Shown piece by piece: positions 12,693 through 27,932 of a stretch of 64,000 nt of DNA (positions are counted from its first letter, which is position 1; each line of letters starts with the position of its first letter). The stretch comes from Patescibacteria group bacterium (lineage in GTDB: Bacteria; Patescibacteriota; Patescibacteriia; Magasanikbacterales; GWA2-37-8). The DNA is taken from assembly GCA_041661385.1 (NCBI GenBank), contig JBAZUP010000001.1:354560-418559 (forward strand), written 5' to 3'. The notes under the pieces were generated by a model. That model was not told the DNA's origin and searched no databases. It was given only the letters and a program-made list of their open reading frames with translations. Made by a program: the position numbers and the translations under genes.

Positions 12693-12723
12693 AAAAAACC
12701 GGTTCATTTTTAACCGGTTTTTG
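12693..12723 (-). terminator. Intrinsic terminator (aaaaaccggttcatttttaaccggttttt)
   Basis: 10-bp stem aaccggtt.../...aaccggtt flanked by T-run. Downstream of the stop of minus gene 12739..13218. Confidence 0.45.
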
Positions 12724-12738
12724 TTAATAAACAAATTC

Positions 12739-13218: not shown

Positions 13219-13223
13219 ATAAT

Positions 13224-13796
13224 TTAAACCTTTAGCAAGCCGCGGAATCCTCTAACGCCATAATATGATTCCGCACCATTGTGATACACAAAGACCTGAC
13301 CATAGCGACAATCACAAAATAAAGCGCCGCCAAGTTTTCTAATTTCGGCGGGTGTCTTAACCCAACTTGATGTTTTCGTATCAAAATTTCCAAGCTTCTG
13401 CAACTCGCGATATTGTTCTTCGGTTAAAATCTCAATACCCATGCTCACCGCCATATCAATAGCATTATTTTTTGGCTTGTGTTCTTTTCTCGAATCTAGC
13501 GCTTCACGATCGTAACAAATACTTCTGCGATCAATCGGAGATTCCGCCGAACAATCATAAAAAATATATTCATCAGTTTTTTTATCAAACCCTACAACAT
13601 CCGGCTCACCGCCGGTTTTTTCCATTTCAAAGAGTGGCCACAATTTTTCTGGTTTGGCCTCCAGCTTTGATTGCACCTTTTTCCACTCAAGACCCTTGTG
13701 GCGCTTCATGTTTTTCTCAAAACGAACATTCAAAGTCTTTAGCAGTTCTTCGCCTTGTTCTTGTGGTAACTTCTTATTGTTATTAATTTTTGTCAT
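13224..13796 (-). CDS. DUF4256-like protein
   Basis: 190 aa. Motifs TGGEPDVVGFDKKTDEYIFYDCSAESP and KLGGALFCDCRYGQVFVYHNGAESYYGVRGFRG recalled as typical of DUF4256. The repeated leader element lies immediately 5' of this gene. Confidence 0.45.
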   Translation of the reverse strand: MTKINNNKKLPQEQGEELLKTLNVRFEKNMKRHKGLEWKKVQSKLEAKPEKLWPLFEMEKTGGEPDVVGFDKKTDEYIFYDCSAESPIDRRSICYDREALDSRKEHKPKNNAIDMAVSMGIEILTEEQYRELQKLGNFDTKTSSWVKTPAEIRKLGGALFCDCRYGQVFVYHNGAESYYGVRGFRGLLKV

Positions 13797-13797
13797 A

Positions 13798-13879
13798 TTC
13801 GAAATGAGTGAGCGAAATGTTTGGCTTGCAAAACATTTCCGAGCGAATGAGAATATATGTGGCGAAGCCCCTATATATA
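13798..13879. repeat. ~82-nt repeated leader element, copy 1 (conserved flanks, variable central hairpin)
   Basis: ttcgaaatgagtgagcgaa-[gaaatgttt ggcttgca aaacatttc]-cgagcgaatgagaatatatgtggcgaagcccctatatata. Near-identical flanks recur at 45026..45176. It sits 2 nt upstream of the start codon of the minus-strand gene (…TTCGAATATG). Confidence 0.6.
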
Positions 13880-13984
13880 ATTAATGGTAATAGGTATTAT
13901 ACGCCTGCAAATAAAAAAGGCCAGCATTTCTGTTGGTCGTTTTTTGCAGCGAGGATACGAAAAATTACGAAACGAATTTAAGGA

Positions 13985-14068
13985 TTAGGGCGGGCGGAAG
14001 GAGGCCTGCCCGCAATACTACGCATAGCGTTGCAGGCGGGGGTTTGGGGAGGAATTCCGCCCGCCCTG
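13985..14068. repeat. GC-rich structured element bounded by a perfect 13-bp inverted repeat (AGGGCGGGCGGAA / TTCCGCCCGCCCT)
   Basis: 55-65% GC segment inside a ~35% GC genome, with nested GC stems (gcctgc...gcaggc). Follows the stop of the minus gene 14093..15130, so it may act as a long-stem terminator. Confidence 0.4.
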
Positions 14069-14092
14069 GGGCCCGCGCGCTTTTTGACGATT

Positions 14093-15130
14093 TCAAGTTT
14101 TTCCGTTTTTATTGTTACTCGACATCACATTATTGTCCTGGCTGATGCCTAAATCAGAACTTGAATTAAACTCGTTCAAAACATCATTAATATCAACAAA
14201 TTGTTTAATTTCCGATTCGCCGCTTTCTAAATCTATGACAATGTGCCCCAAGGATGTTTTTACGGCATTTTGCTTTAGCGAATTTTCTCCCGACGAGTAA
14301 TTAGAATCATAATATCGTTTATCAACATCGGTTCTATTTTCATCTGAGTCTTCCTCTCTCCGTTTTTCGGAAATAATATTCAGCCTTGTTTTATTTCCCT
14401 TAATCTCTTGAAATAATCGCTCAGAAAAAGATGTTACCAGCCCGTGGTGTGGAGTAATTAAAAAATCAATTCCAATTTCATTCAGCTGGTTTTTGAATTC
14501 AGTATTGTTTTCAATCAAGTACTCCATACCTTCTTTTAGAATATCTCCAGGCATTAAAACGCTCTTAGCTTCTAATTGAATAAACAGAAGAAGGCTTATA
14601 TTATTTGCGTATCCGGGTTTTAAAATTTCAGAATTTCCACACTCATTTGGTTTAATATAGAACAATTTTACCACCTCTGGAATGGTTGAAACCAAGGGGT
14701 TGGACGGAGACATTCCGAAAGGGTTGCCAGGAACATTTGCAGTCCTTTTTTTCATATCAGAAAGTACCAACTTCCTAATTTCATTTTCTCCAGTAATAAA
14801 ATTAATAATTATTTTAAAAATACTATCTTGGGTTTCGTTGTCGTTCGGACAAGTCATGTAATTTGGATGAAATCTTTCCCTAAATATTTCATAATCAGAT
14901 ATGTGGTCATTATCCAAATGACTAAGAAACAACTGGTCTATGTAGAACTTGTCAGGACTACCAAAAGTATCCGCTTTTCTAAAGGATCGGCTGTGTGCCA
15001 AAGGAATCAAAAAATTTTCTACCGGAGAAAATTCGGAACTCTTTCCGAGATCAATTACCAATTTTTTATCATCAATTTCAGCATAGGATGACAATGCCCC
15101 GCCTACATTAAAAATTGCAATCTTTTTCAT
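14093..15130 (-). CDS. Degenerate MBL-fold (metallo-beta-lactamase-like) hydrolase
   Basis: 345 aa. N-terminal IAIFNVGGALSSYAEIDDKKLVIDLG. Motif SHLDNDH (H-x-D-x-D-H in place of HxHxDH). Late ITPHHG motif typical of ComEC/MBL hydrolases. Confidence 0.4.
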   Translation of the reverse strand: MKKIAIFNVGGALSSYAEIDDKKLVIDLGKSSEFSPVENFLIPLAHSRSFRKADTFGSPDKFYIDQLFLSHLDNDHISDYEIFRERFHPNYMTCPNDNETQDSIFKIIINFITGENEIRKLVLSDMKKRTANVPGNPFGMSPSNPLVSTIPEVVKLFYIKPNECGNSEILKPGYANNISLLLFIQLEAKSVLMPGDILKEGMEYLIENNTEFKNQLNEIGIDFLITPHHGLVTSFSERLFQEIKGNKTRLNIISEKRREEDSDENRTDVDKRYYDSNYSSGENSLKQNAVKTSLGHIVIDLESGESEIKQFVDINDVLNEFNSSSDLGISQDNNVMSSNNKNGKT

Positions 15131-15798
15131 ATTTTCTTTAAACTCAACAATACGGTTTTAAAAACTAATCCTCGAGCCAAGCCTCTGCCTCTCCATAAAA
15201 AAATAACAAACAATAATGAACTTAAAATACTATAATAAAAGTATTTATTAACTAATAAAATAACGGCTATAATAAAAAATTCCAAAGAAATCACTCGCAC
15301 AAACAAATAATTTCTGTTTGCCGTTTTTATTTCATCAGTTTCACTTACATGAGAGTAAAGTTTCCAAAAAATACTCTGAGACATATCATCATTATTTTTA
15401 TCCTTTTTCCACCACCAAAAAGACAAATCAGAATATTTCTGGTTAAAAGGGCGTAACACCGCTTCTTCTAATTTAATATCTTTTACCAATTCATTTCTTT
15501 TATTCTCATTCTTTATTACTGGATTACAACTGTATAAAAAGACTTCTGACGGTCTTCGTAATTTAAAAAAGATATCTATGACCCACTCTATCTCGTGAGC
15601 AATGGTTTGCAGCACCTCCCCAGCAATGAACGCGGAACAAAAAAACAAAAATGTGTAAAGAAAATCCAAATTTTCGTTAAAGCCAAAATTAATTTTATCT
15701 ACAAATATAAAAAATAGGATTAACAATAAAAATCCGCCAGGCATTACCTTAATGACCAAGTCTTCTAATGAGAATTTTTCTACCATAATATTAAACAA
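15127..15798 (-). CDS. Hypothetical membrane protein
   Basis: 223 aa with N- and C-terminal TM helices. Overlaps the downstream gene by 4 nt (operonic). Confidence 0.35.
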   Translation of the reverse strand: MFNIMVEKFSLEDLVIKVMPGGFLLLILFFIFVDKINFGFNENLDFLYTFLFFCSAFIAGEVLQTIAHEIEWVIDIFFKLRRPSEVFLYSCNPVIKNENKRNELVKDIKLEEAVLRPFNQKYSDLSFWWWKKDKNNDDMSQSIFWKLYSHVSETDEIKTANRNYLFVRVISLEFFIIAVILLVNKYFYYSILSSLLFVIFLWRGRGLARGLVFKTVLLSLKKI

Positions 15799-15825
15799 TA
15801 ATGATTTGTAGAATCTACAAACTCA

Positions 15826-16491
15826 CTACAAACCTAAGGCGGTTAGCTTTTGATCAATATAGTCGGAGCCTTGTGTTTCTCGCGGAAACGATCCGTCGGC
15901 ATTAAAGAATGTAATCTCTTTTTCAGGGTGGGTGGCCTTCTTTGGAAAGAAAGATGTAATTTTTTCAATATCAGTAAATGGCGCTTTTTCTATTTCTTCT
16001 CCTTCGATTTCTGCAGTATGAGCTCCCGAAGACAATGATTTGGTATTTGGTCTCTCCTTTATAAGCTCGCCCATTCTCGTAGCTGCTAACTGCCAATAAG
16101 TCGCGAGAGCTATTTCATGTTCAACGATAGATCCTTCATGGAATTTTTCAAGGTGTTCCAATAACTCTTTTGTGACATCCCAAAGAGAATCATATTTCAT
16201 TGAACCCTCGGAGTAATCAATTTTAGTTGACTCTCCGATCATAAGTAAAAACATTGATTTAAGTAAATAGTCTTTTCCGTCTATATTACTTTGTCGAGAA
16301 AATACCTCAATCCAACTGTCATCAATTTTTTCAAATAAATGAGGGTAATCTTTAAATCTTTCTTTCCTTTTTAGCTCGTATTCAGCATTAGATTTCTCGC
16401 TTGCAATCGCTTCTTTCTCGTCTTCTTTCTGGCGATAAATCCGCCAGAGTATATAGGCTATTATTGCCAACAAAATATAAACTAAAGTCAT
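15826..16491 (-). CDS. Hypothetical protein with N-terminal TM anchor
   Basis: 221 aa. TM helix LVYILLAIIAYILWRI followed by a charged soluble domain. Confidence 0.35.
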   Translation of the reverse strand: MTLVYILLAIIAYILWRIYRQKEDEKEAIASEKSNAEYELKRKERFKDYPHLFEKIDDSWIEVFSRQSNIDGKDYLLKSMFLLMIGESTKIDYSEGSMKYDSLWDVTKELLEHLEKFHEGSIVEHEIALATYWQLAATRMGELIKERPNTKSLSSGAHTAEIEGEEIEKAPFTDIEKITSFFPKKATHPEKEITFFNADGSFPRETQGSDYIDQKLTALGL

Positions 16492-16499
16492 AAATTTAT

Positions 16500-17105
16500 C
16501 TAAAAAATAAGTGATAGATAATTTCGGAATTTAATTATAACCCCAATAATTAGAAAGATGGTAGCTACTACAACAAATTGATTTTTAGACAAACTAGAAA
16601 TTGGAATCTTTTTCCCGTCATTTAAGATTTTAACCAATTTGTTTCTTTCTAAGCATGCGGGGCAAATATACGGATTTGTTGATACAAAAAATATTAATAG
16701 CCCAAATATATTCAGTATGGTAAATAAAAATGCAATTCCAAAGATCCAGCGCGCTTCCCATTTGTATGGTTTTTTAACCTGACCACAACGTTTGCACTCT
16801 ACAAAAATTATATAAGATTTGCTTTTTTCAGGAATAATTAACTTGTTTAAAGAAAGCGCGGATGCAACAGCATTTTTGTTTTGAATTGTTTCTTCGTTTT
16901 GATTAGCAAAATATTCAGCATCAGAGGCAGCTTTAATCTGCTCATCTTTTTTCTGTAAATCTTCAGTTGTTTTTAGATCAGTAAATAATTTTGTCTTTTC
17001 CTCCTCCAAATACTTGTAATATTTTTGCCATTCCACTTCTGGGTCCAAGCCCTCATCCTTCATCCGTTTGACCGCCCTTTGCTCAAAAATTTTTTCGTCC
17101 GTCAT
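16500..17105 (-). CDS. Hypothetical protein with zinc-ribbon-like CxxC...CxxC pair and a TM segment
   Basis: 201 aa. CKRCGQ...ICPACLERN flanking a hydrophobic helix. Confidence 0.35.
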   Translation of the reverse strand: MTDEKIFEQRAVKRMKDEGLDPEVEWQKYYKYLEEEKTKLFTDLKTTEDLQKKDEQIKAASDAEYFANQNEETIQNKNAVASALSLNKLIIPEKSKSYIIFVECKRCGQVKKPYKWEARWIFGIAFLFTILNIFGLLIFFVSTNPYICPACLERNKLVKILNDGKKIPISSLSKNQFVVVATIFLIIGVIIKFRNYLSLIF

Positions 17106-17122
17106 AAATTTTTATTAGTTTT

Positions 17123-17575
17123 TCAATTAAAAAATTTATCAATAGCCGATAATGTACTGAATAAATTTAGTCCCGGCAGAAGTTTATCAGTAAACGCAAA
17201 AATAAGCACAAGTGTAAACATAAAAAGAATTAAGCCGGCGACAGGAATTAAAGACAGCAATTTTTTAATGCCCTTTTGTTGATTTAGTAATTTAATAAAA
17301 TAATAAAATAGCGTACCGACGACAACGAGATCAATGGCATACAGCCACCATATGAAAACTAACGAAAAAGTTGATACTCCTTCAGATGCCGCCGAGTGAA
17401 AAAAAGAGGATGCCAATAAAAATATTGTGGTTTTTAGAAAAGTCCAACCGACAGGAGCAAAAAAACTATAGATTACATAAACAAGCAAAAGAAGTCGCAA
17501 TGGCAAAAGAAAATCCCTTTTTAAAACATCATGCAAGAAAAATGATTTGACCTGGTCATATTGAGAGTTCTTCAT
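17123..17575 (-). CDS. Hypothetical polytopic membrane protein
   Basis: 150 aa with 4 predicted TM helices. Confidence 0.35.
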   Translation of the reverse strand: MKNSQYDQVKSFFLHDVLKRDFLLPLRLLLLVYVIYSFFAPVGWTFLKTTIFLLASSFFHSAASEGVSTFSLVFIWWLYAIDLVVVGTLFYYFIKLLNQQKGIKKLLSLIPVAGLILFMFTLVLIFAFTDKLLPGLNLFSTLSAIDKFFN

Positions 17576-17583
17576 ATGTAAAA

Positions 17584-17781
17584 CTACATAATTAAATCAT
17601 CAATACTTATCTCAAGTGCTTTTGCAATTTTCTTGAGAGTATCTAGAGTAGGATTTTGGTTTTTTCCTGACTCAATTTTAATAATCGTGTTATTTGCCAC
17701 ATCGGCTAATCTGGCCAATTTTTCTTGTGATAATTTTTTGTCTTCTCTAAGTTTTCGTAAATTTGTGTTAATGTTTGACAT
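17584..17781 (-). CDS. XRE-family (Cro/cI-type) helix-turn-helix transcriptional regulator
   Basis: 65 aa. LSQEKLARLADVANNTIIKIESGKNQNPTLDTLKKIAKALEISIDDL is a canonical HTH_3 signature. First gene of a tightly packed minus-strand operon running 17781 to 14093. Confidence 0.7.
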   Translation of the reverse strand: MSNINTNLRKLREDKKLSQEKLARLADVANNTIIKIESGKNQNPTLDTLKKIAKALEISIDDLIM

Positions 17782-17926
17782 ACCTACATCAGAATAGTAG
17801 AATTAAAGTGGTAGTAATATTTCTTTTCTAGTACTTTAAAGCTACACCCAAAATTCGAAATAGACAAGGGAGTTCCAACCCCCTCTGCGCATAGGTCAAG
17901 TTCCACTCCATAATATCTTACAAAAT

Positions 17927-17956
17927 AAAATAACTCCTTATTTAAGGAGTTATTTT
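17927..17956. terminator. Palindromic intrinsic terminator (aaaataactccttatttaaggagttatttt)
   Basis: Perfect 12-bp stem with A/T flanks. Lies downstream of the 18100..22895 operon and upstream of the XRE operon promoter. Confidence 0.45.
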
Positions 17957-18099
17957 ATTTGCAGGACAGTCCGGTCTAGAACTTTTTATGGTGAGGCCGT
18001 TGAGGGCTTCTTGAAGGGTCGCTTCCCCTTCTATATAATCCCTCTCGGTCGGGGTCTAAAATGCGACAAATGCGACAGAGCTAACAATATATGATGACC

Positions 18100-18852
18100 T
18101 TATTTTTTTATTGTATTTTCAGCCAAAATGGTTCTTCTTTTAAATTCTTTTAGAATATCATTTGAGTCAATTGATTTTCTAAAATGAAAACAACTCGCTT
18201 GATTTTTCTCCGGAACAACATAATCAATCAAACTCTTCCCGTCTGGATCCCCACAGTGAACTTGATGGACAAATTGCTTACTATATTTTTCTCTATCATT
18301 ATAGTCACAATAATAAATGATCTTGTCGGTACTTAGCTGGAATACATGGGAATCCCCGTGGCCAAAAAAATATACTTCTTTTATACTTTTATCACTCATT
18401 ATTTTCTCAATATCTTTAACATTTGCCATAGTATAAAATGAAAACCTCTTACCTTCTATTTTTAACAATTCAACTAACGCAACAATTTCGCTTTTTAAAT
18501 AATTATGTTTAATCCAAGCTTCCAACTTAAACCAGTCTGATTGCCCTAAAACAATGACGGTTTCCGCAGGAATGTTTTGTTCAAAAGTATTAATATACTT
18601 GTGTATTAAATGGTCCTGGATTGGAATTATAATTGCAAATATTGGTGAGAGAAAAAACCTCAAAAAATCATCCCAGAAAATCAAGGTTCCATAAACCATT
18701 ACAAAAAATACATGTACATAAACAACAGAAAGAAAACCATACCCCTTAATTACCAAAACACCCAAACAAAAAATATAAACAAAAAATTGAATCAACCCCA
18801 CATCGGTTCTTCTCAAAATTTTTTCTACTTTTTTCATAAAAATTTCAACCAA
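18100..18852 (-). CDS. Membrane protein with two N-terminal TM helices and a C-terminal soluble domain containing GHGDSH and downstream Cys motifs; candidate effector/accessory of the adjacent CBASS-like operon
   Basis: 250 aa. TM helices FFVYIFCLGVLVIKGYGFLSVVYV and VFFVMVYGTLIFW. C-terminal VYFFGHGDSHVFQLS…IIYYCDY…VHCGDPDG. Start codon 6 nt after the stop of the upstream gene. Confidence 0.45.
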   Translation of the reverse strand: MVEIFMKKVEKILRRTDVGLIQFFVYIFCLGVLVIKGYGFLSVVYVHVFFVMVYGTLIFWDDFLRFFLSPIFAIIIPIQDHLIHKYINTFEQNIPAETVIVLGQSDWFKLEAWIKHNYLKSEIVALVELLKIEGKRFSFYTMANVKDIEKIMSDKSIKEVYFFGHGDSHVFQLSTDKIIYYCDYNDREKYSKQFVHQVHCGDPDGKSLIDYVVPEKNQASCFHFRKSIDSNDILKEFKRRTILAENTIKK

Positions 18853-18858
18853 TAATAG

Positions 18859-19449
18859 CTAGAATGCCCCAATAAATTTAAGCTTCCATCTATCAGTATA
18901 TTTTAGTTCAATTTTTTTATATCTAAATTTATATTTTATAAGACTAAAATTGTCAAAAAGTTGACCCGCATCATCTAAAACACTACTTAGCCCATCTTCC
19001 GTCAAATCATTTGGAATTAATATTCTTAATGACGGTTCAAACGGGCCAGAAATTGTATTTGCCAAGACAATAAATTCACGGTTTTTGCTTTGCAAATACT
19101 TATACGATTTAACGACAACCAATTTTGTAATCTCCCACCCGATGTTGGGCAAAACAAATACCGTAAAAAAATATATACCTGGACCAATCCATGATTCAAT
19201 ACTAAAATAACCGCCGCCGCCCAACATCGGCTCATTTCTTCCTCTAATCAAATCGTTTAATCTAAACTTAAAAAAATGCTTAATCCCAAACCACTTATAA
19301 TTAAAATACCCTTTAATTATATCGATATAATATAATCTACTTTTAAAGTAGATCTTCACCTCGCCATTACCTGCAATCGTTCCCTCTAAATCTTTTAGAA
19401 TTTTATTATTAAGCGATTCATCTGTTACAAATATGGTAGTTTTATCCAT
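18859..19449 (-). CDS. Hypothetical protein in the CBASS-like operon (one central hydrophobic segment)
   Basis: 196 aa, no recognisable motif. Gly-rich loop MLGGGGYF. Hydrophobic stretch IGPGIYFFTVFVLPNIGW. Only a 6-nt gap to the NTase gene stop. Confidence 0.4.
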   Translation of the reverse strand: MDKTTIFVTDESLNNKILKDLEGTIAGNGEVKIYFKSRLYYIDIIKGYFNYKWFGIKHFFKFRLNDLIRGRNEPMLGGGGYFSIESWIGPGIYFFTVFVLPNIGWEITKLVVVKSYKYLQSKNREFIVLANTISGPFEPSLRILIPNDLTEDGLSSVLDDAGQLFDNFSLIKYKFRYKKIELKYTDRWKLKFIGAF

Positions 19450-19455
19450 AATAAT

Positions 19456-20832
19456 TTATCTCTTTTTAATAAATCTAAAGCGCCGTCTGTTTATGATATT
19501 TACATGAAAAGGACCACTGCGTGCTACCATTCGGCCTCGGTTTACAACGAAGCATTCAATCCAATGTTTCCCCGAATATGAAGCTTTTTCGTGATTTATT
19601 TTTTGATTCGAAGTCAACTTATTATAGAGATCTTTACCCTTAAAAAATCCACCTCTCAACCCATTATCTTGTTTTGCTTCTATCCCCGTGTTCACGACCT
19701 GCCAAAATATTTCAGAACCTGCCGGCTCATTTAAAGTGATGGCTTCATATTTAAAAGTATTTCCGTCAAATTGAACCGGTCCGTTTGAAGGAATTTCCAT
19801 TAATTTATATCCACTCGAAGTACATTTAATTTTTACTGAACAACCTACATTTGTGATTGGCCATTCTGGCACTTTAAGGTGTTGATAATCTCCAAGCGGA
19901 AACACTGTTTCAGATAGTTGCTTTTCCGCGTCCTTTACAGCAATCAAAAAATCATCGCCAAAAATTTCAGTCCATTTCTTAACTGAACTTTCAAAGTCCG
20001 GATCATCATATGCGTCACTGATCTTTTCGGTATATAATTTAAATTTATCTCTAAAATTTTCATACTTTTCTTGATCCCAATGCCTATTAAAATCTTCACT
20101 CGGGAGGCTTGGATTAACAATTGTAGGCATTACTGGATTTCGCTGTAAATAGTCATTAACACGGTTACAAATATTTTTTAACGTCGTTGGTACATCTGAA
20201 AATATAATAACTGGATCGCTAACATAAACATTTTGACCAAGAAGAGTAGTGAGCAAAATTGATTTTACATTCATTAATTTTGTATCACGAAGATACTTAA
20301 CAAGTCTAACAACTTTAACCAAATTATTTTGTGCAGCAGAATTCTTTGCTGAAAACCATTCCGCGTATCCATCAGCGTCAGTTATTTCGTATTGATTGGT
20401 ATTTTTATTCATGATCTTTTGATTGCCGGCATCATCAACACATGGGATAATATCCATATGAAAATCGGATTCATAATCCAAGGTCACGCAACGAGTTTTT
20501 CCCCGTTTATCAACAATATCTTTATATCTATCAGTTTTGAAAAACTCATCATGAAGAATTGCTAAATAGTCCTTCGGTTCCCATCCATTAACTTTTTTTA
20601 GCTGAAAAAGTAAATCAACATCAAAATCTTTATTATCCATGCATGGCTTTATGATCGTTCCCTGACGATATGACCCTTGAGGTTTTACTGAAATAAAATA
20701 TTTTTTAAAAATGTCATTATTTTTTAGAAATTTTTCTACTGTTTCTATCCCCGTTTTTGCAACATCAATCCTATTTTGATTAAGATTAACTGTATTCTGT
20801 AAAAATATTGAAAACTCGTTAACTAGATTCAT
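19456..20832 (-). CDS. cGAS/DncV-like (SMODS-type) nucleotidyltransferase with an extra C-terminal ~150-aa domain (AGS-C-like sensor domain)
   Basis: 458 aa. Minimal NTase signature GSYRQGTIIKPCMDNKDFDVDLLF (GS…[DE]h[DE]h) plus a third acidic residue in FHMDIIPCV. The C-terminal segment VPEWPITNVGCSVKIKC…HWIECFVVNRGRMVARSG lies beyond the NTase core. Confidence 0.7.
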   Translation of the reverse strand: MNLVNEFSIFLQNTVNLNQNRIDVAKTGIETVEKFLKNNDIFKKYFISVKPQGSYRQGTIIKPCMDNKDFDVDLLFQLKKVNGWEPKDYLAILHDEFFKTDRYKDIVDKRGKTRCVTLDYESDFHMDIIPCVDDAGNQKIMNKNTNQYEITDADGYAEWFSAKNSAAQNNLVKVVRLVKYLRDTKLMNVKSILLTTLLGQNVYVSDPVIIFSDVPTTLKNICNRVNDYLQRNPVMPTIVNPSLPSEDFNRHWDQEKYENFRDKFKLYTEKISDAYDDPDFESSVKKWTEIFGDDFLIAVKDAEKQLSETVFPLGDYQHLKVPEWPITNVGCSVKIKCTSSGYKLMEIPSNGPVQFDGNTFKYEAITLNEPAGSEIFWQVVNTGIEAKQDNGLRGGFFKGKDLYNKLTSNQKINHEKASYSGKHWIECFVVNRGRMVARSGPFHVNIINRRRFRFIKKR

Positions 20833-20833
20833 A

Positions 20834-22012
20834 TCATGAAGGATTAACTATAATGGTTTCTTCGTAATTTCCTTTATCATTCCTGTCGTAAATAATTAAG
20901 GAAGGCGTAACACCCTTTAGCAACTCCCTACCTATGTGAAAAGCTAAAGAAACCGGAACTGCTGCAAAGACATGCAGTTCTTTTGTACTAGGGTGGAGTT
21001 TCTCAATTTCTCTCAATAGCTGTGCGTATCGTACACGAAAAATTTCGGCAGATTTATTTGATCCAATTATACTCCTAGAACTATCTTCCCCAATGGGATT
21101 AAGCCTATAAATGGTAAAAGATTTACCGATGTTGGCTGGGAGAGCGTTTCGCGCTATTACGCCGCTCGCAGAAATGCAAAGTGCGATTTTATCCTTAGCA
21201 CCGATCTGCTCCACGGTGGATTTAAAATCTATGGAACCTTTTATGGATGGCCATTTCCAACTCTCAGACGAATCCCTGTGCTTTTGATATATATCAATTT
21301 TAATTTTATCGCCAATTTTATTGCCGAAATAAGCTATTAACGGAATCCTGGCGAGCGCAAAAACGGAGATATGCTTGACCGACCCATCTTCAATCGATGG
21401 AAAAATTTTGAGATCGACAACCTTATCAATAATTTTTTTTCCTTCATCCCAGTAATAAGAATCCTTTCCAGCAATTTTAGACAAGTCAATTTCTATACCG
21501 TTTTGTTTCCCAGCCATAAGGTACCGGGGATAACGATTACAAGCTAAAACCGCTTCTCGTATTTCACCATCTGAGACAGAAACTGTACCTCCTCTAATAT
21601 TACCAATTAATCGAATGACTGCTGTTTCCGATTCTGGTCCGAGCGAGGTTTGGTACAAAATCCTATCTTCATGAACTTTTTTATATTCCAAAAGGAGTTC
21701 AACCGGAAAATCTTTCGGAGATTTATCTATAATTTTATTATGATGTTCTGAACAGAGAAGCATCAAATTGCCTACTTTGTTTCTATCCGTGACAGGAAGA
21801 GAACAACTCCCTCGAGGCCCCTTCCGTGACCGTCCAACAACGTGCGCAACATCCCCCAAAAAAAGTTCATTTAATCCTGTAAACTCATCATCCAATAGGT
21901 ACTTATTGCACCCTAAAAATTCACATCTGCCACCCGCTCTAACCCACAGAGCTATTCTCACTGGATTGGATTGTGTTATTGAAGATGCTTTTTCTTCAGT
22001 AGTCTTCGGCAT
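20834..22012 (-). CDS. cap5: Cap5-type effector: HNH endonuclease fused to a SAVED cyclic-oligonucleotide sensor domain
   Basis: 392 aa. N-terminal HNH (GGRCEFLGCNKYL…HVVGRSRKGP…NLMLLCSEHHNKIID). C-terminal SAVED hallmark HVFAAVPVSLAFHIGRELL…IIYD. Confidence 0.75.
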   Translation of the reverse strand: MPKTTEEKASSITQSNPVRIALWVRAGGRCEFLGCNKYLLDDEFTGLNELFLGDVAHVVGRSRKGPRGSCSLPVTDRNKVGNLMLLCSEHHNKIIDKSPKDFPVELLLEYKKVHEDRILYQTSLGPESETAVIRLIGNIRGGTVSVSDGEIREAVLACNRYPRYLMAGKQNGIEIDLSKIAGKDSYYWDEGKKIIDKVVDLKIFPSIEDGSVKHISVFALARIPLIAYFGNKIGDKIKIDIYQKHRDSSESWKWPSIKGSIDFKSTVEQIGAKDKIALCISASGVIARNALPANIGKSFTIYRLNPIGEDSSRSIIGSNKSAEIFRVRYAQLLREIEKLHPSTKELHVFAAVPVSLAFHIGRELLKGVTPSLIIYDRNDKGNYEETIIVNPS

Positions 22013-22014
22013 AT

Positions 22015-22245
22015 TTAATGAACTTTATCCTTTGGCGGACAACTATCGTTGCCGAAACTGTCCTTATCTTTAATTAGACCATGTCGATTGTGATAAACGG
22101 CCTCAACCTCAGCTCTTTTTGCGAGAGTGTGAGTTTTGTCTTCAGCGGCCTCTTGAGTGCGATGAACCGAAACCGGCTTACTTACCCCTTCTTTTTTTAC
22201 AGCCCAGTCACCATCCCAGGGCACACTATGATAATTTTTTGCCAT
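22015..22245 (-). CDS. DUF2188-family small protein
   Basis: 76 aa. MAKNYHSVPWDGDWAVKKEGVSKP…HTLAKRAEVEAVYHNRHGLIKDKDSFGNDSCPPKDKVH matches the conserved DUF2188 pattern (W.VK.EG…H.TQ.EA…G.I.DKDSYGNDP.PP.D). Its stop abuts the cap5 start. Confidence 0.6.
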   Translation of the reverse strand: MAKNYHSVPWDGDWAVKKEGVSKPVSVHRTQEAAEDKTHTLAKRAEVEAVYHNRHGLIKDKDSFGNDSCPPKDKVH

Positions 22246-22259
22246 AAATAAATAATAAA

Positions 22260-22895
22260 TTATTTTTTAACAACTCTAACCACAACGCCATTAACAAAAT
22301 ATTTGCCATCCTCTACATCCTCTTCGTGGATCGTTATTGGCGGTGCGTCGTTATCCGTCTCAGAAATAAGTCTGATTTCATGCTTTGTATTGTCCTTAAA
22401 AAATTTCTTAATATTCGCGGCACCGTCAATTACCGACAAAACATAATTCCCGTTGCTGGGTTTTTGCTTGCATTCAACAACTACATAATCACCGGTTTCG
22501 ATTCCTTCTCCCTTAATGTTAGCGCCAGTCATAGAATCACCCACCGCTCTAACCGCAATGAGTCCGTCCGGCCGATATTGCCCAATTGATTTTTTAGAAA
22601 TTTTTAAATAGCCCTCAATATGAGTTTCGGCTAATTCTGTGGCTGGACCACAACTCGCTGATCCGACAATGGGAATATTAAAAAAGTTATCCACAGTATA
22701 CCCCTGGGGCTTTGCCACCCGCTGACGCTTATTGGAATCAAAATACAACAACCCCTTCTTCTTTAGCTGCTCTAGATTATATATGACGGACTGAGGATGT
22801 TTAACCCCGATTTCACGCATTATTTCCCTGAATTTCATATCAGAAATATCCTTTTTTTTGGCTAATTTTAGTAATTTTTCTTGTGTTTCGTTCAT
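22260..22895 (-). CDS. LexA-like repressor (winged-HTH + S24 autopeptidase domain)
   Basis: 211 aa. N-terminal wHTH (IMREIGVKHPQSVIYNLEQLKKKGLL). S24 catalytic Ser in AVGDSMTGANI and Lys in AANIKKF. First gene of the operon. Confidence 0.7.
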   Translation of the reverse strand: MNETQEKLLKLAKKKDISDMKFREIMREIGVKHPQSVIYNLEQLKKKGLLYFDSNKRQRVAKPQGYTVDNFFNIPIVGSASCGPATELAETHIEGYLKISKKSIGQYRPDGLIAVRAVGDSMTGANIKGEGIETGDYVVVECKQKPSNGNYVLSVIDGAANIKKFFKDNTKHEIRLISETDNDAPPITIHEEDVEDGKYFVNGVVVRVVKK

Positions 22896-22970
22896 AAACC
22901 TATATTTTATCGGTTTTTTAAATATAATGCCTGCTATAAATTCAGCGGGGCTGATACCCCATCGGTTATA

Positions 22971-22999
22971 GTATATTATAAATGATTTATAATGTCAAG
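22971..22999 (-). promoter_or_regulatory. Sigma70-like promoter for the lexA-like operon with a 17-bp palindromic operator in the spacer
   Basis: In minus orientation: TTGACA – ttataaatcatttataa (17 nt) – TATACT. The spacer is a perfect inverted repeat TTATAAAT c ATTTATAA (22977..22993). Confidence 0.45.
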
Positions 23000-23015
23000 A
23001 GATTTTTTAACACCC

Positions 23016-23044
23016 TTGACACCAATCAAAACCGAGCGTACAAT
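23016..23044 (+). promoter_or_regulatory. Divergent sigma70-like promoter for 23077..23553 (TTGACA-17-TACAAT)
   Basis: cTTGACAccaatcaaaaccgagcgTACAATc, about 30 nt upstream of the ATG at 23077. Confidence 0.45.
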
Positions 23045-23076
23045 CTTTATAAGCGCTAAAAACTAACAACACAACT

Positions 23077-23553
23077 ATGAAACTAGTAATTTCCCAAGCC
23101 AAACCAAACCCGACCGGCAAGGACCGTCCCCCGTTTGGATCAATCCTGCCGTTTCAGTTAGCGGCGGAATGGATTGATATTACCAACTCCGACAATGCAA
23201 GCATAAATCTTAATGGCCTTCAAATATATAATCTTTCCTATACGAACGGAACAGCACAATGGAGAATTGTTCGTGAATTTAATCTTGGCAACAAATGCAT
23301 GTTGCCACCGGGAAAAACTGTAAGACTGCACTCTGGAAAAGAAATATCAACAAATACAATGCGAACTGAAGATCAACTCGGCACCAACTACCATCTTTTC
23401 ACCGAATATAATAATTACATTTGGAACAATAAACAAATTGATAGGCCATGTATTTTTAACCCCTCCACAAAAGCAACATTAGACGTAACCCAATATAACC
23501 CGCCTGTCCCCGATGGAAAAATTTTAAAAAGATATGGAGACTTTCTTATTTAA
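23077..23553 (+). CDS. Lamin-tail-domain (LTD)-like protein
   Basis: 158 aa. LVISQAKPNPTGKDRPPF…AAEWIDITNSDNASINLNGLQIYN…KTVRLHSGK follows the LTD pattern (NP.G.D..EWIEL.N....v.L.G..L). Confidence 0.45.
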   Translation: MKLVISQAKPNPTGKDRPPFGSILPFQLAAEWIDITNSDNASINLNGLQIYNLSYTNGTAQWRIVREFNLGNKCMLPPGKTVRLHSGKEISTNTMRTEDQLGTNYHLFTEYNNYIWNNKQIDRPCIFNPSTKATLDVTQYNPPVPDGKILKRYGDFLI

Positions 23554-23654
23554 CTCTTAAATAATCGCTTGATGATTACAATTTACTTTTGGTAGAGCAA
23601 TCTAAGGAATAAAATGATTTTGATTGGTTTTTAGATACCGTGACTGGTATTCGT

Positions 23655-23720
23655 TGAAACGAGCGCTCGCCTTTCTACAACACCCTTGGTGTTTTAGTTG
23701 GGCGGGCGCTTTTTTTAAAG
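23655..23720 (+). terminator. Long-stem GC-rich terminator (gcgctcgcc…ggcgggcgc + T7)
   Basis: 9-bp GC stem with a ~39-nt loop, followed by ttttttt after the + gene 23077..23553. Shares the GGGCGGGCG motif with the element at 13985..14068. Confidence 0.4.
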
Positions 23721-23755
23721 GTCGAAAATATAATTAACTAAAAAATTTAATATAT

Positions 23756-25084
23756 ATGATTAATACAAAACTTAACATCGTGGAAGTTCCGGTCAACGAA
23801 CTTCGAGCGTCGGAATACAATCCACGCAAACATTCTAAAGAACAATCCGACCAGCTTAAGAAATCAATTGAGCGCTTCGGCCTCGTGGACCCAATCATTT
23901 GTAATAACGCACCGGAGCGAAAAAATATCATCGTTGGCGGCCACTTTAGAGCCGAAGTAGCCAAAGAGTTAGGCCTGACCACGGTACCTGTAGTGTATGT
24001 CTGTATTACAGAGATACAAAAGGAACAGGAGCTTTCAGTCCGTCTTAACAAAAATACCGGGGAGTTTGACCTTGATCTCCTAGCAGAATTTGACGAAGCC
24101 TTCCTAGCCGATGTCGGTTTTGATAGCGAAGAGATAGATGACATCTTTCCTACTGAGGTAAATACCGAGATGTTTGACTTGAAAAAGGAACTAGAAAAAT
24201 TAAATATCCAAGAAATTACCGTACAGAAAGGAGACACTTACGAATTGAACGGCTCTCGCCTCCGGTGTGGCGATTCAACAATTGAGGCGGATGTTATTAA
24301 ACTTATGAATGGCGAAAAGGCCGACATGTGCTTTACCGATCCACCATATATCCTTGATTACCTCAAAGGTAAAACAAAAAATAAGGATGGAGTGACCGTT
24401 GGCTTTGGCGCTAAAAAGAATCGTCGCTACCTTGAAACCGACGAACTGCCACCAGATTTTACGGAAAAATGGATAGCTAATATTAACAAGGTTGCCAAAG
24501 AGAGCTTTGCCATCATTGTTTATGAGAACTGGAAGAACCTTCGGATTATTTGGGGCGAGCTTGAGAAATATTGGAAAGTAAAAAATATGATTGTTTGGCA
24601 CGTCCCTAATCGGATGCAAGGATTTTCAGCTAAAAATAAATTCTTTAATAAACACGATATTGCCATGGTCGGGGCGTCGGAAGACAAAGCGCTTGAAGCA
24701 GAAGATGAAGGCGAACTGCTTGAAAATGAATATGAGACGGCGCTCTACGCCATTGCTGGCAAGCCACATTGGGAATCCTACGAAACCGGCAAAAAAATCT
24801 GCCCGACCGATTTTATAGATTATAAGGCGGCTGACGAAAAATCATCAGGACAAGGTGTAATCTTTGGAACCAAACCAACCGAAATCCTTATCCCCTACAT
24901 TAAAGTCCTTACCAAGCGAAACGATCTGATCGTTGAACCTTTCGGTGGTAGTGGTTCAACCCTAATTTCAGCGATTAAGATGAATCGCCGCTGTTATATC
25001 ATGGAAAAATCACCAGTTTACACCGAAGTCATTTTGAAACGCTGGGAAAAAGAAACTGGAGAAAGACCAAAGAAAATCAACTAA
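23756..25084 (+). CDS. ParB-like nuclease N-terminal domain fused to an N6-adenine/N4-cytosine DNA methyltransferase
   Basis: 442 aa. ParB/Srx motif (VNELRASEYNPRKH, IIVGGHFR). MTase motif IV TDPPY and motif I EPFGGSGST. Confidence 0.75.
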   Translation: MINTKLNIVEVPVNELRASEYNPRKHSKEQSDQLKKSIERFGLVDPIICNNAPERKNIIVGGHFRAEVAKELGLTTVPVVYVCITEIQKEQELSVRLNKNTGEFDLDLLAEFDEAFLADVGFDSEEIDDIFPTEVNTEMFDLKKELEKLNIQEITVQKGDTYELNGSRLRCGDSTIEADVIKLMNGEKADMCFTDPPYILDYLKGKTKNKDGVTVGFGAKKNRRYLETDELPPDFTEKWIANINKVAKESFAIIVYENWKNLRIIWGELEKYWKVKNMIVWHVPNRMQGFSAKNKFFNKHDIAMVGASEDKALEAEDEGELLENEYETALYAIAGKPHWESYETGKKICPTDFIDYKAADEKSSGQGVIFGTKPTEILIPYIKVLTKRNDLIVEPFGGSGSTLISAIKMNRRCYIMEKSPVYTEVILKRWEKETGERPKKIN

Positions 25085-25085
25085 T

Positions 25086-25670
25086 ATGATCGACGACAAG
25101 ACAAAACTAAACCTTCTAAAAGAAATCCAAAAAAACGGTAACGTTAGTTTGTCTTGCATTAGAATTAATATTGATCACGCAACCTATTATCGCTGGAAAA
25201 AAGAAGATAAAGAATTTCGTAAAAAAGCCAACGAGGCTGAAACTATCGGAAGAAAAAATAATTGTGACCTGGCGGAGCACGCTTTAATACTTCTGGTAAA
25301 GGAAAAAAAGATAGAAGCTGTCAAATATTTACTAAGCCACAATTCACCCAGGTACAAACCAAAAACAACGAACGCTGTAATACTACATAAATCTTTACCA
25401 AAATTAGAACCAGTACCGACAAGAACCCTGGAGGATCTGCTGGTCGAGGATGGTGAACAGCGCAGAGAAAGATGCGTTAGTATCCAGAATAAATTTCTCG
25501 CCTTAGGCGGTGTTCCACCTAAGGCTGATGGATCGCCAATTGAATTTCACGAACTAATTGATTATGAGATATATATTGAGGAGTGGTATAAGAAGAAAGA
25601 TATTGATGACGAAAAGAAAAATATACCGACTACTGAGTATCAAAAAATTTCACCATTAACAAACGGCTGA
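25086..25670 (+). CDS. Phage terminase small-subunit-like HTH protein
   Basis: 194 aa. N-terminal LKEIQKNGNVSLSCIRINIDHATYYRWKKEDKEFRKKANEA resembles the TerS/homeodomain-like HTH. Confidence 0.4.
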   Translation: MIDDKTKLNLLKEIQKNGNVSLSCIRINIDHATYYRWKKEDKEFRKKANEAETIGRKNNCDLAEHALILLVKEKKIEAVKYLLSHNSPRYKPKTTNAVILHKSLPKLEPVPTRTLEDLLVEDGEQRRERCVSIQNKFLALGGVPPKADGSPIEFHELIDYEIYIEEWYKKKDIDDEKKNIPTTEYQKISPLTNG

Positions 25671-25673
25671 AAT

Positions 25674-26381
25674 TTATTTATATACTTCAAGTGACCCACC
25701 AAAAGCCGTGACCTCAGCCACCTTTTCATTAGATTGTACATCGCGAATTTCAAGGTGTTTAAAACCAGTTATCTCCTCCTTCAGCATTGCTAGCTTTGCA
25801 AGAATATCTTTTTTGAAAGTAACTTTTTGGGAATACCAAGCAGGACCGACGTAAACGACGCTTGCTGTTTTGGAAAACTCATATGAATCAAAAAGGCCAG
25901 CTTGTTTACCTAGATTAATTAGTTCATCCAGCTCCTTCTGTGCCTCTTCCTTTGGACGGGCTGTCTGCACTGTTGTAACTGCTTCAGTTTTAACTTGACT
26001 ATCCTTATTAACTTGCTCAGGGGTTGTACTCACAACAATTTGTTTATCCTGAATTTTAACTAAGGATTCCGGTTCTTTTTTTACTTCAGGAGCAGCGACA
26101 CCAATCATAATCAGAGAAACAAAACCCAACAAGCCAAATATTAAGGTTAATTTTTTTCTATTTGGCTGTGATTTAAAAAATCTTGTAAACAAAGACGGCT
26201 TGGCAAGACCAATAAACCAAGCAATTATTGATCCAAAAAATATAAAACCAAATAACGTTTGCATACTTATTTTAATAATTAAATAAATAAAGCCGACCTT
26301 TAGATAAGCCGGCATGAAACACAAAACCCCACGCCAGCTGGGCTTTTTACGGCCCCATACACCTTTCGATGTATGACTCAA
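25674..26381 (-). CDS. Hypothetical membrane protein (true start possibly at 26264, Met40 MQTLFGF…)
   Basis: TM helices followed by a Thr/Lys-rich linker and a C-terminal soluble domain. The first ~39 codons overlap a terminator-like palindrome and are probably not coding. Confidence 0.4.
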   Translation of the reverse strand: MSHTSKGVWGRKKPSWRGVLCFMPAYLKVGFIYLIIKISMQTLFGFIFFGSIIAWFIGLAKPSLFTRFFKSQPNRKKLTLIFGLLGFVSLIMIGVAAPEVKKEPESLVKIQDKQIVVSTTPEQVNKDSQVKTEAVTTVQTARPKEEAQKELDELINLGKQAGLFDSYEFSKTASVVYVGPAWYSQKVTFKKDILAKLAMLKEEITGFKHLEIRDVQSNEKVAEVTAFGGSLEVYK

Positions 26382-26385
26382 CTAA

Positions 26386-26428
26386 GAATAGCTGAACGTG
26401 GAGTTCAGTGTCTTAGTTGAGTTTCGAA
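26386..26428. repeat. Long imperfect inverted repeat (actcaactaaga…tcttagttgagt) in the intergenic region 5' of the serine recombinase
   Basis: 12-bp arms plus 5-bp inner arms (ctgaac/gttcag). Candidate recombinase att core, operator or part of a structured RNA. Confidence 0.35.
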
Positions 26429-26639
26429 GCACCATGCCTAGAGGTTATCTGGGTTTAGGTACTTGGCCTTCCAGCCTGAATTGTCAATGACATTTTAGCT
26501 AAATTATAGCCAAATGTCCAGCACATAATAGCTTAGAATAGGTGCTTTGCGAAGCTTAGTTATCTACAGTTTGTCTACTAGGGGCTCTGGACTAACTAGC
26601 GGGGTCTGCGTCATTAATGTCTATGAGATAATATAATCT

Positions 26640-27932
26640 ATGGACCAAATCACAGCCCCTCCTACCCAATATTGCCTATACGCCCGTAAGTCGTCCGAAT
26701 CAGACGAAAAGCAGGCCCTTTCAATAGATTCCCAGATCAAAGAGATGACCAAACTAGCCGAACGGGATGGACTCTATATAAAGGAGATTAGGCGAGAAAG
26801 TCATTCGGCCAAGGCTTCGGGGCAAAGGCCGGTATATAACGAGTTGATTGAGGATATTAGGAAAGGGTTATTTACCGGTATTTTAACTTGGGCACCGGAT
26901 CGGCTGAGCAGAAACGCCGGCGATCTGGGGTCGTTAGTTGATCTAATCGACCAAAAACTACTTCACGAAATACGAACCTATGGTCAAAAATTTACCAATT
27001 CCCCTAACGAGAAATTTCTATTAATGATTCTGGGAAGTCAGGCAAAACTTGAAAATGATAACCGAGGCTTAAACGTAAAACGAGGTCTGAGAGCAAAAGT
27101 GGAGATGGGTCTGTGGCCTGGAGTGGCGCCAATCGGGTATTTGAATGAAAAACGAACGGATCGAAAATGCCACATTGTCATAGACCCTTTAAGAGCACCG
27201 ATTGTAAAAAAGATTTTTGAGAAAGCGGCAAATGATGGCTGGAGCGGTCGACAAATTCATGCTTGGTTAAAAAATGATTTAAACTTTAGATCAAAAAACA
27301 ATAAATATTTTGCCTTAAGCAATTTATACTTAATGCTTAGGAACACTTTTTACTACGGGTCACACGAATACCCAAAAGGGAGTGGCAATTGGTATACTGG
27401 GAATCACCAGCCTATTATTTCGAAAGAGCTTTTTGAGAAGGTTCAGGAAAGAATGTTGGATTATCAAGTCGGAAAAAGTAAAAGTAAAGAATTTGCCTTT
27501 ACCAAACTAATCACATGCGGACTATGTGGATCGGGTATTACCGCTGATGAAAAATTTAAAAAACAAAAAAATGGCACCATCCATCGCTACGTATATTATG
27601 GTTGTACAAAATACAAAGACTTAAATTGCAAATTAGGCTATATGAGAGAAGAAGATTTACTAAACCAAATACTTGAACTGATTGACAAAATTTCTCTGGA
27701 GGAGCTCGGGATGAAAGAAAAAATTGTAAAAGAAGTTGAACGGTATCATAAATTTCAATCGGGAGTTATGGGAATCAATCCTGAACAAAAAGAAAAACAA
27801 AAAAGGATTGATATTAAAAATTATGCCAAGTTTATTTTAAAAGAAGGGCAGGTGTTCGAAAAAAGAGATTTGTTGTCAAATTTAAAAAGCCATCTCACCC
27901 TTGAGAATAAATTATTAAACTTAAAAAATTAA
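26640..27932 (+). CDS. Large serine recombinase (integrase)
   Basis: 430 aa. Resolvase-type N-terminus with catalytic Ser (CLYARKSSESDEKQALSIDSQ). Recombinase domain and C-terminal zinc-ribbon/coiled-coil (CGLCGSGITADEK…YYGCTKY). Confidence 0.85.
   Translation: MDQITAPPTQYCLYARKSSESDEKQALSIDSQIKEMTKLAERDGLYIKEIRRESHSAKASGQRPVYNELIEDIRKGLFTGILTWAPDRLSRNAGDLGSLVDLIDQKLLHEIRTYGQKFTNSPNEKFLLMILGSQAKLENDNRGLNVKRGLRAKVEMGLWPGVAPIGYLNEKRTDRKCHIVIDPLRAPIVKKIFEKAANDGWSGRQIHAWLKNDLNFRSKNNKYFALSNLYLMLRNTFYYGSHEYPKGSGNWYTGNHQPIISKELFEKVQERMLDYQVGKSKSKEFAFTKLITCGLCGSGITADEKFKKQKNGTIHRYVYYGCTKYKDLNCKLGYMREEDLLNQILELIDKISLEELGMKEKIVKEVERYHKFQSGVMGINPEQKEKQKRIDIKNYAKFILKEGQVFEKRDLLSNLKSHLTLENKLLNLKN

Follow-up and report, generated by a model that had tools for sequence, protein, structure and literature searches.

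The 64-kb stretch of DNA analysed here (hereafter the window) lies within a 778,751-bp contig of a metagenome-assembled genome (MAG) from the Patescibacteria, or candidate phyla radiation (CPR), and carries on its minus strand a compact unit of six genes, which is headed by a gene for a LexA-like repressor and includes an antiphage signalling system based on cyclic oligonucleotides (CBASS). We consider it probable that the region is the LexA-headed cargo arm of a phage-derived element, carrying an ordinary Type I CBASS together with independent modules. The defence system itself is a known one, and what is new is its LexA-type head gene with a conserved putative operator, the small DUF2188 protein as a companion of the repressor, and a family of caspase-like proteins in the same cargo slot. 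An initial annotation, made from the sequence alone, had described a non-canonical CBASS operon of six genes, possibly in a CPR host; the public records of a Patescibacteria-group MAG bear out the host, and all six open reading frames (ORFs) are present, separated by 14, 2, 1, 6 and 6 nt, which agrees with the packing of 0 to 15 nt described there. From the first gene to the last they are:

22260..22895, minus strand, LexA-like repressor, 211 aa
22015..22245, minus strand, DUF2188 small protein, 76 aa
20834..22012, minus strand, Cap5 effector, 392 aa
19456..20832, minus strand, cGAS/DncV-like nucleotidyltransferase (CD-NTase) with AGS-C domain, 458 aa
18859..19449, minus strand, P196, 196 aa
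18100..18852, minus strand, P250, 250 aa from a TTG start

P196 and P250 denote the 196-aa and 250-aa proteins encoded by the fifth and sixth genes; the public annotation and the family alignment make the ATG at 18837 the more likely start of P250, giving 245 aa. The unit sits in a low-GC stretch (0.32–0.36, versus about 0.40–0.44 elsewhere). Judged from the sequence, the six genes probably form one transcription unit, because a promoter scoring 11/12 precedes them, the intergenic gaps leave no room for further promoters, and a hairpin terminator lies downstream. The predicted signals are as follows:

22970..22998, minus strand, promoter of the unit (TTGACA, 17 nt, TATACT), 11/12 in the promoter scan
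23016..23044, plus strand, divergent promoter (TTGACA, 17 nt, TACAAT), 11/12 in the promoter scan
17923..17960, minus strand, likely terminator, perfect 18+18-nt hairpin with a U-rich tract, -23.4 kcal/mol, z -9.7

The two promoters stand back to back in the 181-nt region 5' of the LexA-like gene, and the divergent one faces the genes for a lamin-tail-domain (LTD) protein, a ParB-methylase and a protein resembling a terminase small subunit (TerS). Despite its probable single transcript, the unit is an evolutionary composite.

The LexA-like repressor and its putative operator

The window ORFs were searched against Pfam, PADLOC, NCBIfam and PHROG profiles, and solved structures were searched with phmmer. 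The first gene of the unit encodes a protein with a winged-helix DNA-binding domain and an S24 peptidase domain (Pfam Peptidase_S24, 6e-16), which aligns with Escherichia coli LexA structures over both domains. Its score against Pfam LexA_DNA_bind (22.6 bits) falls just short of the cut-off of 23.7, and because its score against the NCBIfam LexA equivalog TIGR00498 (77.7 bits) is below the cut-off of 110.95, we name it LexA-like and not LexA. Cys82-Gly83 of the repressor occupies the position of Ala84-Gly85 in LexA, and GDS121M and K163 are present; Cys82-Gly83, Ser121 and Lys163 are invariant among four relatives. UmuD is likewise cleaved at a Cys-Gly bond.

A putative operator, the perfect 19-nt palindrome ATTATAAAT-C-ATTTATAAT at 22975-22993, fills the spacer of the promoter of the unit, so that the minus-strand promoter with the palindrome reads TTGACA-TTATAAATCATTTATAA-TATACT. 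A TTGACA-palindrome-TATAAT layout is kept 5' of the LexA-like genes in six related loci (L090, L091, L092, L097, L098 and L100), with small changes in the palindrome and divergent surrounding DNA. Related loci also keep the divergent promoter's -35 box, which reads TGTCAA on the other strand. We propose, from these sequence comparisons, that the conserved palindrome is the phylogenetic footprint of an operator for autorepression. A regulon defined by the palindrome within the window did not emerge, as 6 matches at up to 3 mismatches against 3.2 expected are not significant.

Linkage of LexA-like genes to CBASS and other defence genes

Two samples of related loci were compared. The cyclase-selected sample comprises 80 genome loci with relatives of the cyclase, onto all of which the window proteins were mapped by tblastn, and the LexA-selected sample comprises 80 loci with LexA-like proteins at 40–64% identity, obtained in a metagenome scan with an alignment of four LexA-like proteins as the query. 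Nine of the 80 cyclase-selected loci, mostly from Saccharibacteria, Moranbacteria and Gracilibacteria, have a LexA-like gene immediately upstream in the same orientation. The order in these nine is LexA-like gene, then Cap5 or an effector ORF of ~315–340 aa (patatin in L007 and L023, the two scanned), then cyclase, and between the LexA-like gene and the effector gene there is, in six of them, anything from an overlap of 1 nt to a gap of 49 nt. As it does in the window, the LexA-like gene has a ParB-methyltransferase and a large serine recombinase on its far side.

Seen from the repressor, the linkage recurs. Thirteen LexA-selected loci were informative (at least 50% identity and enough downstream sequence), and in seven of them (L091, L092, L094, L096, L098, L101 and L103) SMODS was found in the downstream same-strand chain, with the match in L091 being sub-threshold in Pfam; in another three (L102, L105 and L108) a homologue of P250 was found instead of SMODS. 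SMODS is also the commonest Pfam family among 97 ORFs downstream of LexA-like genes (8 matches), followed by AGS_C, MscL, PemK toxin, LTD, DNA methylases, patatin, ThsB-TIR, Schlafen-AlbA_2 and STAND NTPases. The other families downstream are mostly of defence (TIR, restriction-modification, PemK, STAND and Avs4), and one such neighbour matches Avs4 at 6e-300. In locus L172 (7377-10371), from a genome of roughly 775 kb, a LexA-like gene heads a restriction-modification operon of N6_N4 methylase, ResIII and DUF2130, and lies 24 nt from a divergent CBASS of patatin and cyclase-AGS-C. No joint mention of SMODS and LexA was found in the searched literature.

The CBASS core

The cyclase matches Pfam SMODS (5e-32), Pfam AGS_C over residues 317-446 (4.4e-22) and, over its full length, PADLOC PDLC00793 (3e-133), and an alignment of 26 homologues shows no variation at the signature residues G53, S54, D71, D73 and D127. 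There are 759 homologues at E<1e-20, and the full-length ones among the matches listed all have the SMODS+AGS_C architecture; identity to any database cyclase is at most 51%. Among solved structures the nearest is an unnamed CD-NTase (4e-15), followed by CdnB (3e-8) and CdnG (4e-8). A clade call from these structures was dropped, as the scores are too alike to choose between B and G.

Cap5 consists of an N-terminal HNH nuclease and a C-terminal SAVED sensor (Pfam SAVED, 2e-35; PADLOC endonuclease effector, 2.4e-109 over the full length; SAVED_HNH, 3e-100). The Pfam HNH match is weak (0.0068), and HNH_2 at 16.7 bits is under its 21-bit cut-off. Cap5 aligns with the solved Cap5 structure 7rwk over residues 14-379 (1.2e-42, phmmer), and the His, Asn and His residues of the HNH site are kept, with AHVV...NLMLLC..HH aligned to AHIV...NLILLC..HH of 7rwk. 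The Cap5 ORF ends 1 nt ahead of the start of the cyclase. The calls in the initial annotation of a nucleotidyltransferase with the GS...DxD...D signature and an AGS-C-like tail, and of a Cap5 joining HNH to SAVED, had rested on short motifs, and the profile searches it had advised returned significant matches for both proteins. As it had also stated, accessory genes are missing: Pfam and PADLOC scans of the ORFs at 11175-27932 found no Cap2/Cap3, HORMA/TRIP13 or type IV accessory genes.

By its predicted gene content the core is an ordinary, canonical two-gene Type I CBASS, because a cyclase and a sensor-bearing effector are present and accessory genes are absent; a cyclase and an effector without accessories are the very definition of Type I, and the label non-canonical therefore does not hold. 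The gene order, called unusual in the initial annotation, is the common one. About 70 of the 80 cyclase-selected loci have an ORF of 300-400 aa that abuts the cyclase gene upstream and has the same orientation; this ORF is Cap5 by tblastn in about 25 loci, and the ~300–330-aa effectors are patatins by Pfam in both loci scanned (L007 and L023). The genes 3' of the cyclase vary in length and presence across the 80 loci.

About 40% of Type I operons are reported to carry a CD-NTase-AGS-C fusion (10.1101/2023.05.21.541620), and nearly all of these fusions belong to clades B and H or to branches of clades F and G (10.1101/2023.05.21.541620; PMC12804361), and an operon of VcCdnG09 and Cap5 has been assayed against phages (10.1101/2023.05.21.541620; PMC12804361). 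The core of the window shares with Type I CBASS that combine a CdnG/CdnB-type CD-NTase-AGS-C fusion with a Cap5 effector, such as VcCdnG-Cap5 of Vibrio cholerae (known Cap5 structures are 7rwk, 7rwm and 8fm1), the two-gene composition, the domain architectures, the position of the effector gene immediately before the cyclase gene, conserved active-site residues in both enzymes and the lack of accessory genes, whereas its sequences are distant, its host belongs to the CPR and a LexA-like repressor heads its operon. Taken by itself, the CBASS core contributes little, since it is a further Type I Cap5 system, albeit in the little-studied CPR.

DUF2188, P196 and P250

The six genes are not co-conserved. 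DUF2188, P196 and P250 are absent from all 80 cyclase-selected loci, as searched with tblastn, family hidden Markov models (HMMs) and jackhmmer, and conversely a cyclase was not found in 10 other P250 loci or 5 other P196 loci (judged by tblastn with the cyclase of the window or, in annotated loci, by Pfam). Since the initial annotation had named co-conservation of the six genes in related genomes as a check on its operon, this result partly overturns it. Among the four genes other than Cap5 and the cyclase, the LexA-like gene is the only one recurrently coupled to CBASS.

An S24 repressor and a DUF2188 protein do head the operon, as had been described, and the second of them matches Pfam DUF2188 at 1.3e-15 and the PADLOC candidate PDC-S16 at 5e-23. 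DUF2188 adjoins the LexA-like gene in 11 of the 80 LexA-selected loci (2 downstream on the same strand, 9 divergent upstream), as against none of the 80 cyclase-selected loci, and it is therefore a companion of the repressor and not a part of the CBASS. DUF2188 occurs in CapH/CapP-linked operons and has previously been tied to such cleavable-repressor modules and to defence (10.1101/2022.04.27.489752).

For P196, a word-indexed search returned only the protein itself, and a full HMMER scan found 8 remote homologues, which share the motifs EPxLGGGG, PFDT and IPNNL. Where flanking sequence is available, each homologue is followed by a different gene within 2-40 nt: in one case HEPN_Cthe2314 and then GIY-YIG, in another a 183-aa weak paralogue, and in a further one a 331-aa membrane protein, lying between a type I restriction-modification system and GmrSD. 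P196 thus belongs to a rare, unannotated family with variable partners. A 196-aa ORF 3' of the cyclase in L007 was considered as a relative of P196 and set aside, being of the same length but unrelated.

P250 has 109 homologues at 39–67% identity, distributed among Patescibacteria, Caldisericia, Elusimicrobia and one Pacearchaeota MAG. No Pfam domain was found in any of the 109, and P250 itself has no match in Pfam (including CHAT and Peptidase_C14), NCBIfam, PADLOC or PHROG. The alignment shows the invariant residues G159-H160, H164, C177, H194-C195-G196 and C216. In the AlphaFold model (pLDDT 94.2, pTM 0.89) N-terminal helices are followed by an alpha/beta domain, and the best structural match is the CHAT domain of the SAVED-CHAT signalling protease. 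GH160G follows strand 154-158 and H194-C195-G follows strand 189-193, as in caspases, a correspondence read from the strand positions in the model. Transmembrane (TM) segments were predicted from the Kyte-Doolittle mean over 19 residues with a threshold of 1.6, which gave two strong segments and one marginal segment near the N-terminus of P250 and none above 1.6 in P196. The model points to P250 as a membrane-anchored protein with a caspase/CHAT-like, clan-CD-like domain, a predicted protease. Both proteins had been described as membrane-associated, which fits P250 and not P196; the structure prediction suggested for the two gave a confident caspase-like fold for P250 and no fold for P196.

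A caspase-like fold in which two consecutive strands are followed by a His and a Cys, respectively, is common to P250, SAVED-CHAT (8tl0), TPR-CHAT/Csx29 and DdvA (8rot), a transmembrane anti-sigma factor of the CHAT type and a precedent for a membrane-anchored CHAT in phage-related signalling. P250 differs from these proteins in the far smaller size of its domain (about 150 residues), in the 2-3 TM helices at its N-terminus, and in the lack of SAVED, TPR and anti-sigma domains. Elsewhere P250 is found alone beside a recombinase, after a trypsin-like or Schlafen-AlbA_2 gene, or before Avs4-like, GIY-YIG or RadC genes, and the family is often near restriction-modification systems. It lies downstream of or beside a LexA-like gene in five other loci, and never adjoins a cyclase in the 10 other loci. 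No relatives of P250 were found among IMG/VR viral contigs. Two homologues of 426-427 aa (P0098 and P0100, L004 2523-3806) carry an extra C-terminal domain of ~190 residues with an RNNLEH (Rx4H) motif. A HEPN identity for this extension was dropped, as it has no Pfam, PADLOC or NCBIfam match and no BLASTP similarity to the HEPN_Cthe2314 neighbour.

The backbone of the probable mobile element

On the other side of the promoter region lie the genes that we regard as the backbone of the element:

23077-23553, plus strand, LTD protein (Pfam/PHROG)
23756-25084, plus strand, ParB-N6/N4 methyltransferase (PHROG, 2.6e-78)
25086-25670, plus strand, TerS-like helix-turn-helix (HTH) protein, 194 aa (weak PHROG terminase-small-subunit match)
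26340..26461, minus strand, LOOT RNA motif (Rfam RF03000, 67 bits)
26640..27932, plus strand, large serine recombinase, the element integrase (Pfam Resolvase, Recombinase, Zn_ribbon_recom)

The ParB-methylase and the 194-aa protein recur beside LexA-like genes in many loci. The latter is located 3' of the ParB-methylase in 23 related loci, and in L171 its homologue is followed by a Terminase_6C protein, a context which suggests a phage-derived, possibly satellite-like backbone. Homologues of the recombinase (48–62% identity) flank LexA-CBASS units in L007, L016, L023, L029 and L098. The LOOT motif lies about 180 nt 5' of the recombinase gene and is divergent from it; it is also present at L168 1684-1803, L105 1254-1384, L007 1485-1614 and L016 5393-5517 (67–87 bits), adjoining the recombinase in three of these four loci, and it appears to be a constant component of the backbone in this family of CPR elements. 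The only phage-like genes detected in the Pfam and PHROG scans are those for the integrase, the ParB-methylase and the TerS-like HTH protein, with no virion structural or lysis genes. Taken together, the element looks like a phage-derived integrative island in which the slot behind the repressor collects defence cargo.

The LTD gene is divergent from the LexA-like gene in the window, and in L096, L097, L098, L101 and L103 it is found directly 3' of the LexA-like gene on the same strand, before the CBASS genes.

Proposed function and alternative explanations

On this basis the following course of events can be proposed, its steps being drawn from what is established about LexA/S24 repressors, CD-NTases and Cap5. 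The region would be the cargo arm of an integrated element, with the serine recombinase, the LOOT RNA, the TerS-like protein, the ParB-methyltransferase and the LTD protein as its backbone. A dimer of the LexA-like protein would bind the palindrome that separates the -35 box of its own promoter from the -10 box and keep the six-gene transcript low and autoregulated. Upon DNA damage or phage replication, RecA on single-stranded DNA would promote cleavage at Cys82-Gly83 by Ser121/Lys163, and expression would rise. The CD-NTase with its AGS-C Ig-like tail would sense a phage cue and synthesize a signal, presumably a cyclic oligonucleotide; the SAVED domain of Cap5 would bind it, and the HNH domain would degrade DNA, resulting in abortive infection. 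P196 and P250 would be independent cargo with a presumed role in defence, their families being found in other defence islands without CBASS, and we propose a caspase-like membrane effector with a partner as the most attractive reading of the two.

The same idea, a repressor adjacent to CBASS that is expected to be inactivated after DNA damage, underlies CapH/CapP, CapW (WYL) and CapK/CapS, and, as for CapH, the inactivation expected for the window repressor is proteolytic. The window differs from CapH/CapP in having one LexA/S24 protein that would cleave itself and no CapP metallopeptidase, and in that its regulator is the first gene on the operon strand, whereas CapH/CapP lie upstream on the opposite strand. 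If the proposal is true, CBASS would have a LexA-type autoproteolytic route of control parallel to CapH/CapP, CapW and CapK/CapS, which ties its expression directly to RecA-sensed damage. Likewise, the CPR would harbour a family of elements whose cargo slot behind the repressor is fixed, a practical place to mine defence genes in tiny genomes, and the P250 family would widen the clan CD proteases linked to prokaryotic immunity (>100 members in CPR, Caldisericia, Elusimicrobia and DPANN). We advance with considerable reserve the broader view that the LexA-like proteins make up a fourth class of DNA-damage switch, composed of a single protein, that serves CBASS and other defence cargo of CPR mobile elements, with P250 as an undescribed minimal effector under the same switch, perhaps paired with P196.

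Several points weigh against the reading as a LexA-headed cargo arm. Promoters and terminator alike were called by matching a consensus in AT-rich DNA, and promoter-like sites are no more frequent in the region than in shuffled sequence. No further full copies of the palindrome occur within the 64-kb window, and because it is single there, a regulon is not demonstrable. Convincing direct or inverted flanking repeats were not seen as attachment (att) sites. Moreover, both samples are biased by their selection, one by the cyclase and the other by the LexA-like protein. Considering the scope of 64 kb, the LexA-like protein could be the only LexA of the cell, and the control could run in either direction, by induction upon cleavage or by steady co-expression as in lambda cI-rexAB.

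This last case, a maintenance repressor like lambda CI under which the cargo is steadily co-expressed and cleavage mainly turns on the divergent arm for excision or transfer with no boost of CBASS, is the alternative that survives best, and we regard it as possible but the less likely course. Lambda cI-rexAB is a cleavable repressor co-expressed with abortive-infection cargo, and with it and with the defence hotspots of prophages or satellites the window shares a cleavable S24-type repressor co-transcribed with such cargo on an integrated element, as well as the divergent-promoter switch of cI-rexAB. The back-to-back promoters kept across loci, the phage-like backbone with an integrase and a TerS-like gene, and a half-site TTTATAA after the -10 box of the divergent promoter are consistent with such a role. 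However, it is the promoter of the repressor itself that contains the full palindrome, at a distance of 23 nt from the divergent -35 box, and autorepression fits this position best; there are no capsid, tail or replication genes; and the relatives of P250 are absent from viral contigs. Unlike the lambda repressor, that of the window has a DNA-binding domain of LexA type and not a Cro/CI HTH, and the element is without virion genes and has a large serine recombinase as its integrase.

It is somewhat more doubtful that P196 and P250 are a separate two-gene defence or toxin-antitoxin-like module, made of a constant partner and a membrane-anchored caspase-like effector. The varied genes that follow the P196 homologues, including HEPN, are what is typically seen when one part stays constant and its effectors are exchanged; P250 is found in defence islands and, in five other loci, under LexA-like genes, and its catalytic His and Cys are invariant. 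On the other hand, the pairing is seen in the window only (the 10 other P250 loci lack a P196-like neighbour, and the 5 other P196 loci lack P250), P250 is often alone, and neither family is in PADLOC.

An ordinary SOS repressor at an insertion hotspot, with the neighbouring defence genes not under its control, appears unlikely. The winged helix of LexA type and the alignment to LexA structures would agree with it, as would the Pif1-like helicases (plausible repair genes) that lie beside LexA-like genes in several loci and 10 kb downstream in the window, and the MscL and other housekeeping genes that follow some LexA-like genes of lower identity. Nevertheless, several independent loci, whose effectors differ, have the start of the following gene adjoining or overlapping the stop codon of the LexA-like gene, which leaves no room for a separate promoter, and the LexA-like gene travels with the backbone of ParB-methylase, TerS-like protein and serine recombinase. 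In addition, the protein scores under the NCBIfam LexA equivalog cut-off, and the operator is unlike known SOS boxes and single in 64 kb.

Finally, the integrated non-canonical CBASS of the initial annotation, with P196 and P250 as accessory or second effector and DUF2188 as a CBASS part, is most improbable: the co-directional genes with gaps of 1-14 nt between one promoter and one terminator, and the CHAT of SAVED-CHAT as the best structural match of P250, a precedent for a protease arm of nucleotide signalling, speak for it, but the other three genes occur in none of the 80 cyclase-selected loci, the other P250 and P196 loci have no cyclase match, P250 is without SAVED or another nucleotide-sensor domain, and Cap5 and the cyclase already make a complete Type I system.

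Neighbouring genes

Past the terminator, a separate small unit at 17123-17781 on the minus strand encodes a 65-aa HTH_3 protein and, after 8 nt, a 150-aa protein with three TM segments. The 65-aa HTH protein (17584-17781) matches PADLOC capH at 5.9e-13, and was rejected as a CapH since it is downstream, past the terminator, with no CapP metallopeptidase nearby. Further along the minus strand (14093-15798), a gene for a 345-aa protein of the metallo-beta-lactamase (MBL) fold overlaps a gene for a 223-aa membrane protein by 4 nt. The MBL-fold protein has weak PADLOC matches to LmuA, RTasMBL and PDC-M48B and weak NCBIfam matches to ComEC, 6A-MBL and Avs1a, and the pair may be further defence cargo of the same low-GC island. 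A kinship of this pair to the Lactamase_B pair after the LexA-like gene in L170 was rejected, as there is no tblastn similarity.

A Pif1/RecD-like helicase is encoded at 11175-12632 on the minus strand, with homologues beside LexA-like genes in L115 (immediately downstream), L134/L135, L139 and L165. This neighbourhood may be a trace of an ancestral linkage of LexA and helicase, or a sign of a true SOS regulon. Beyond the recombinase, a minus-strand ORF of 3008 aa (27939-36965) ends 7 nt from the recombinase stop codon and may contain or border the integration site. It is followed at 37618-41319, also on the minus strand, by a gene for a 1233-aa protein with transglutaminase-core and amidase_2 domains.

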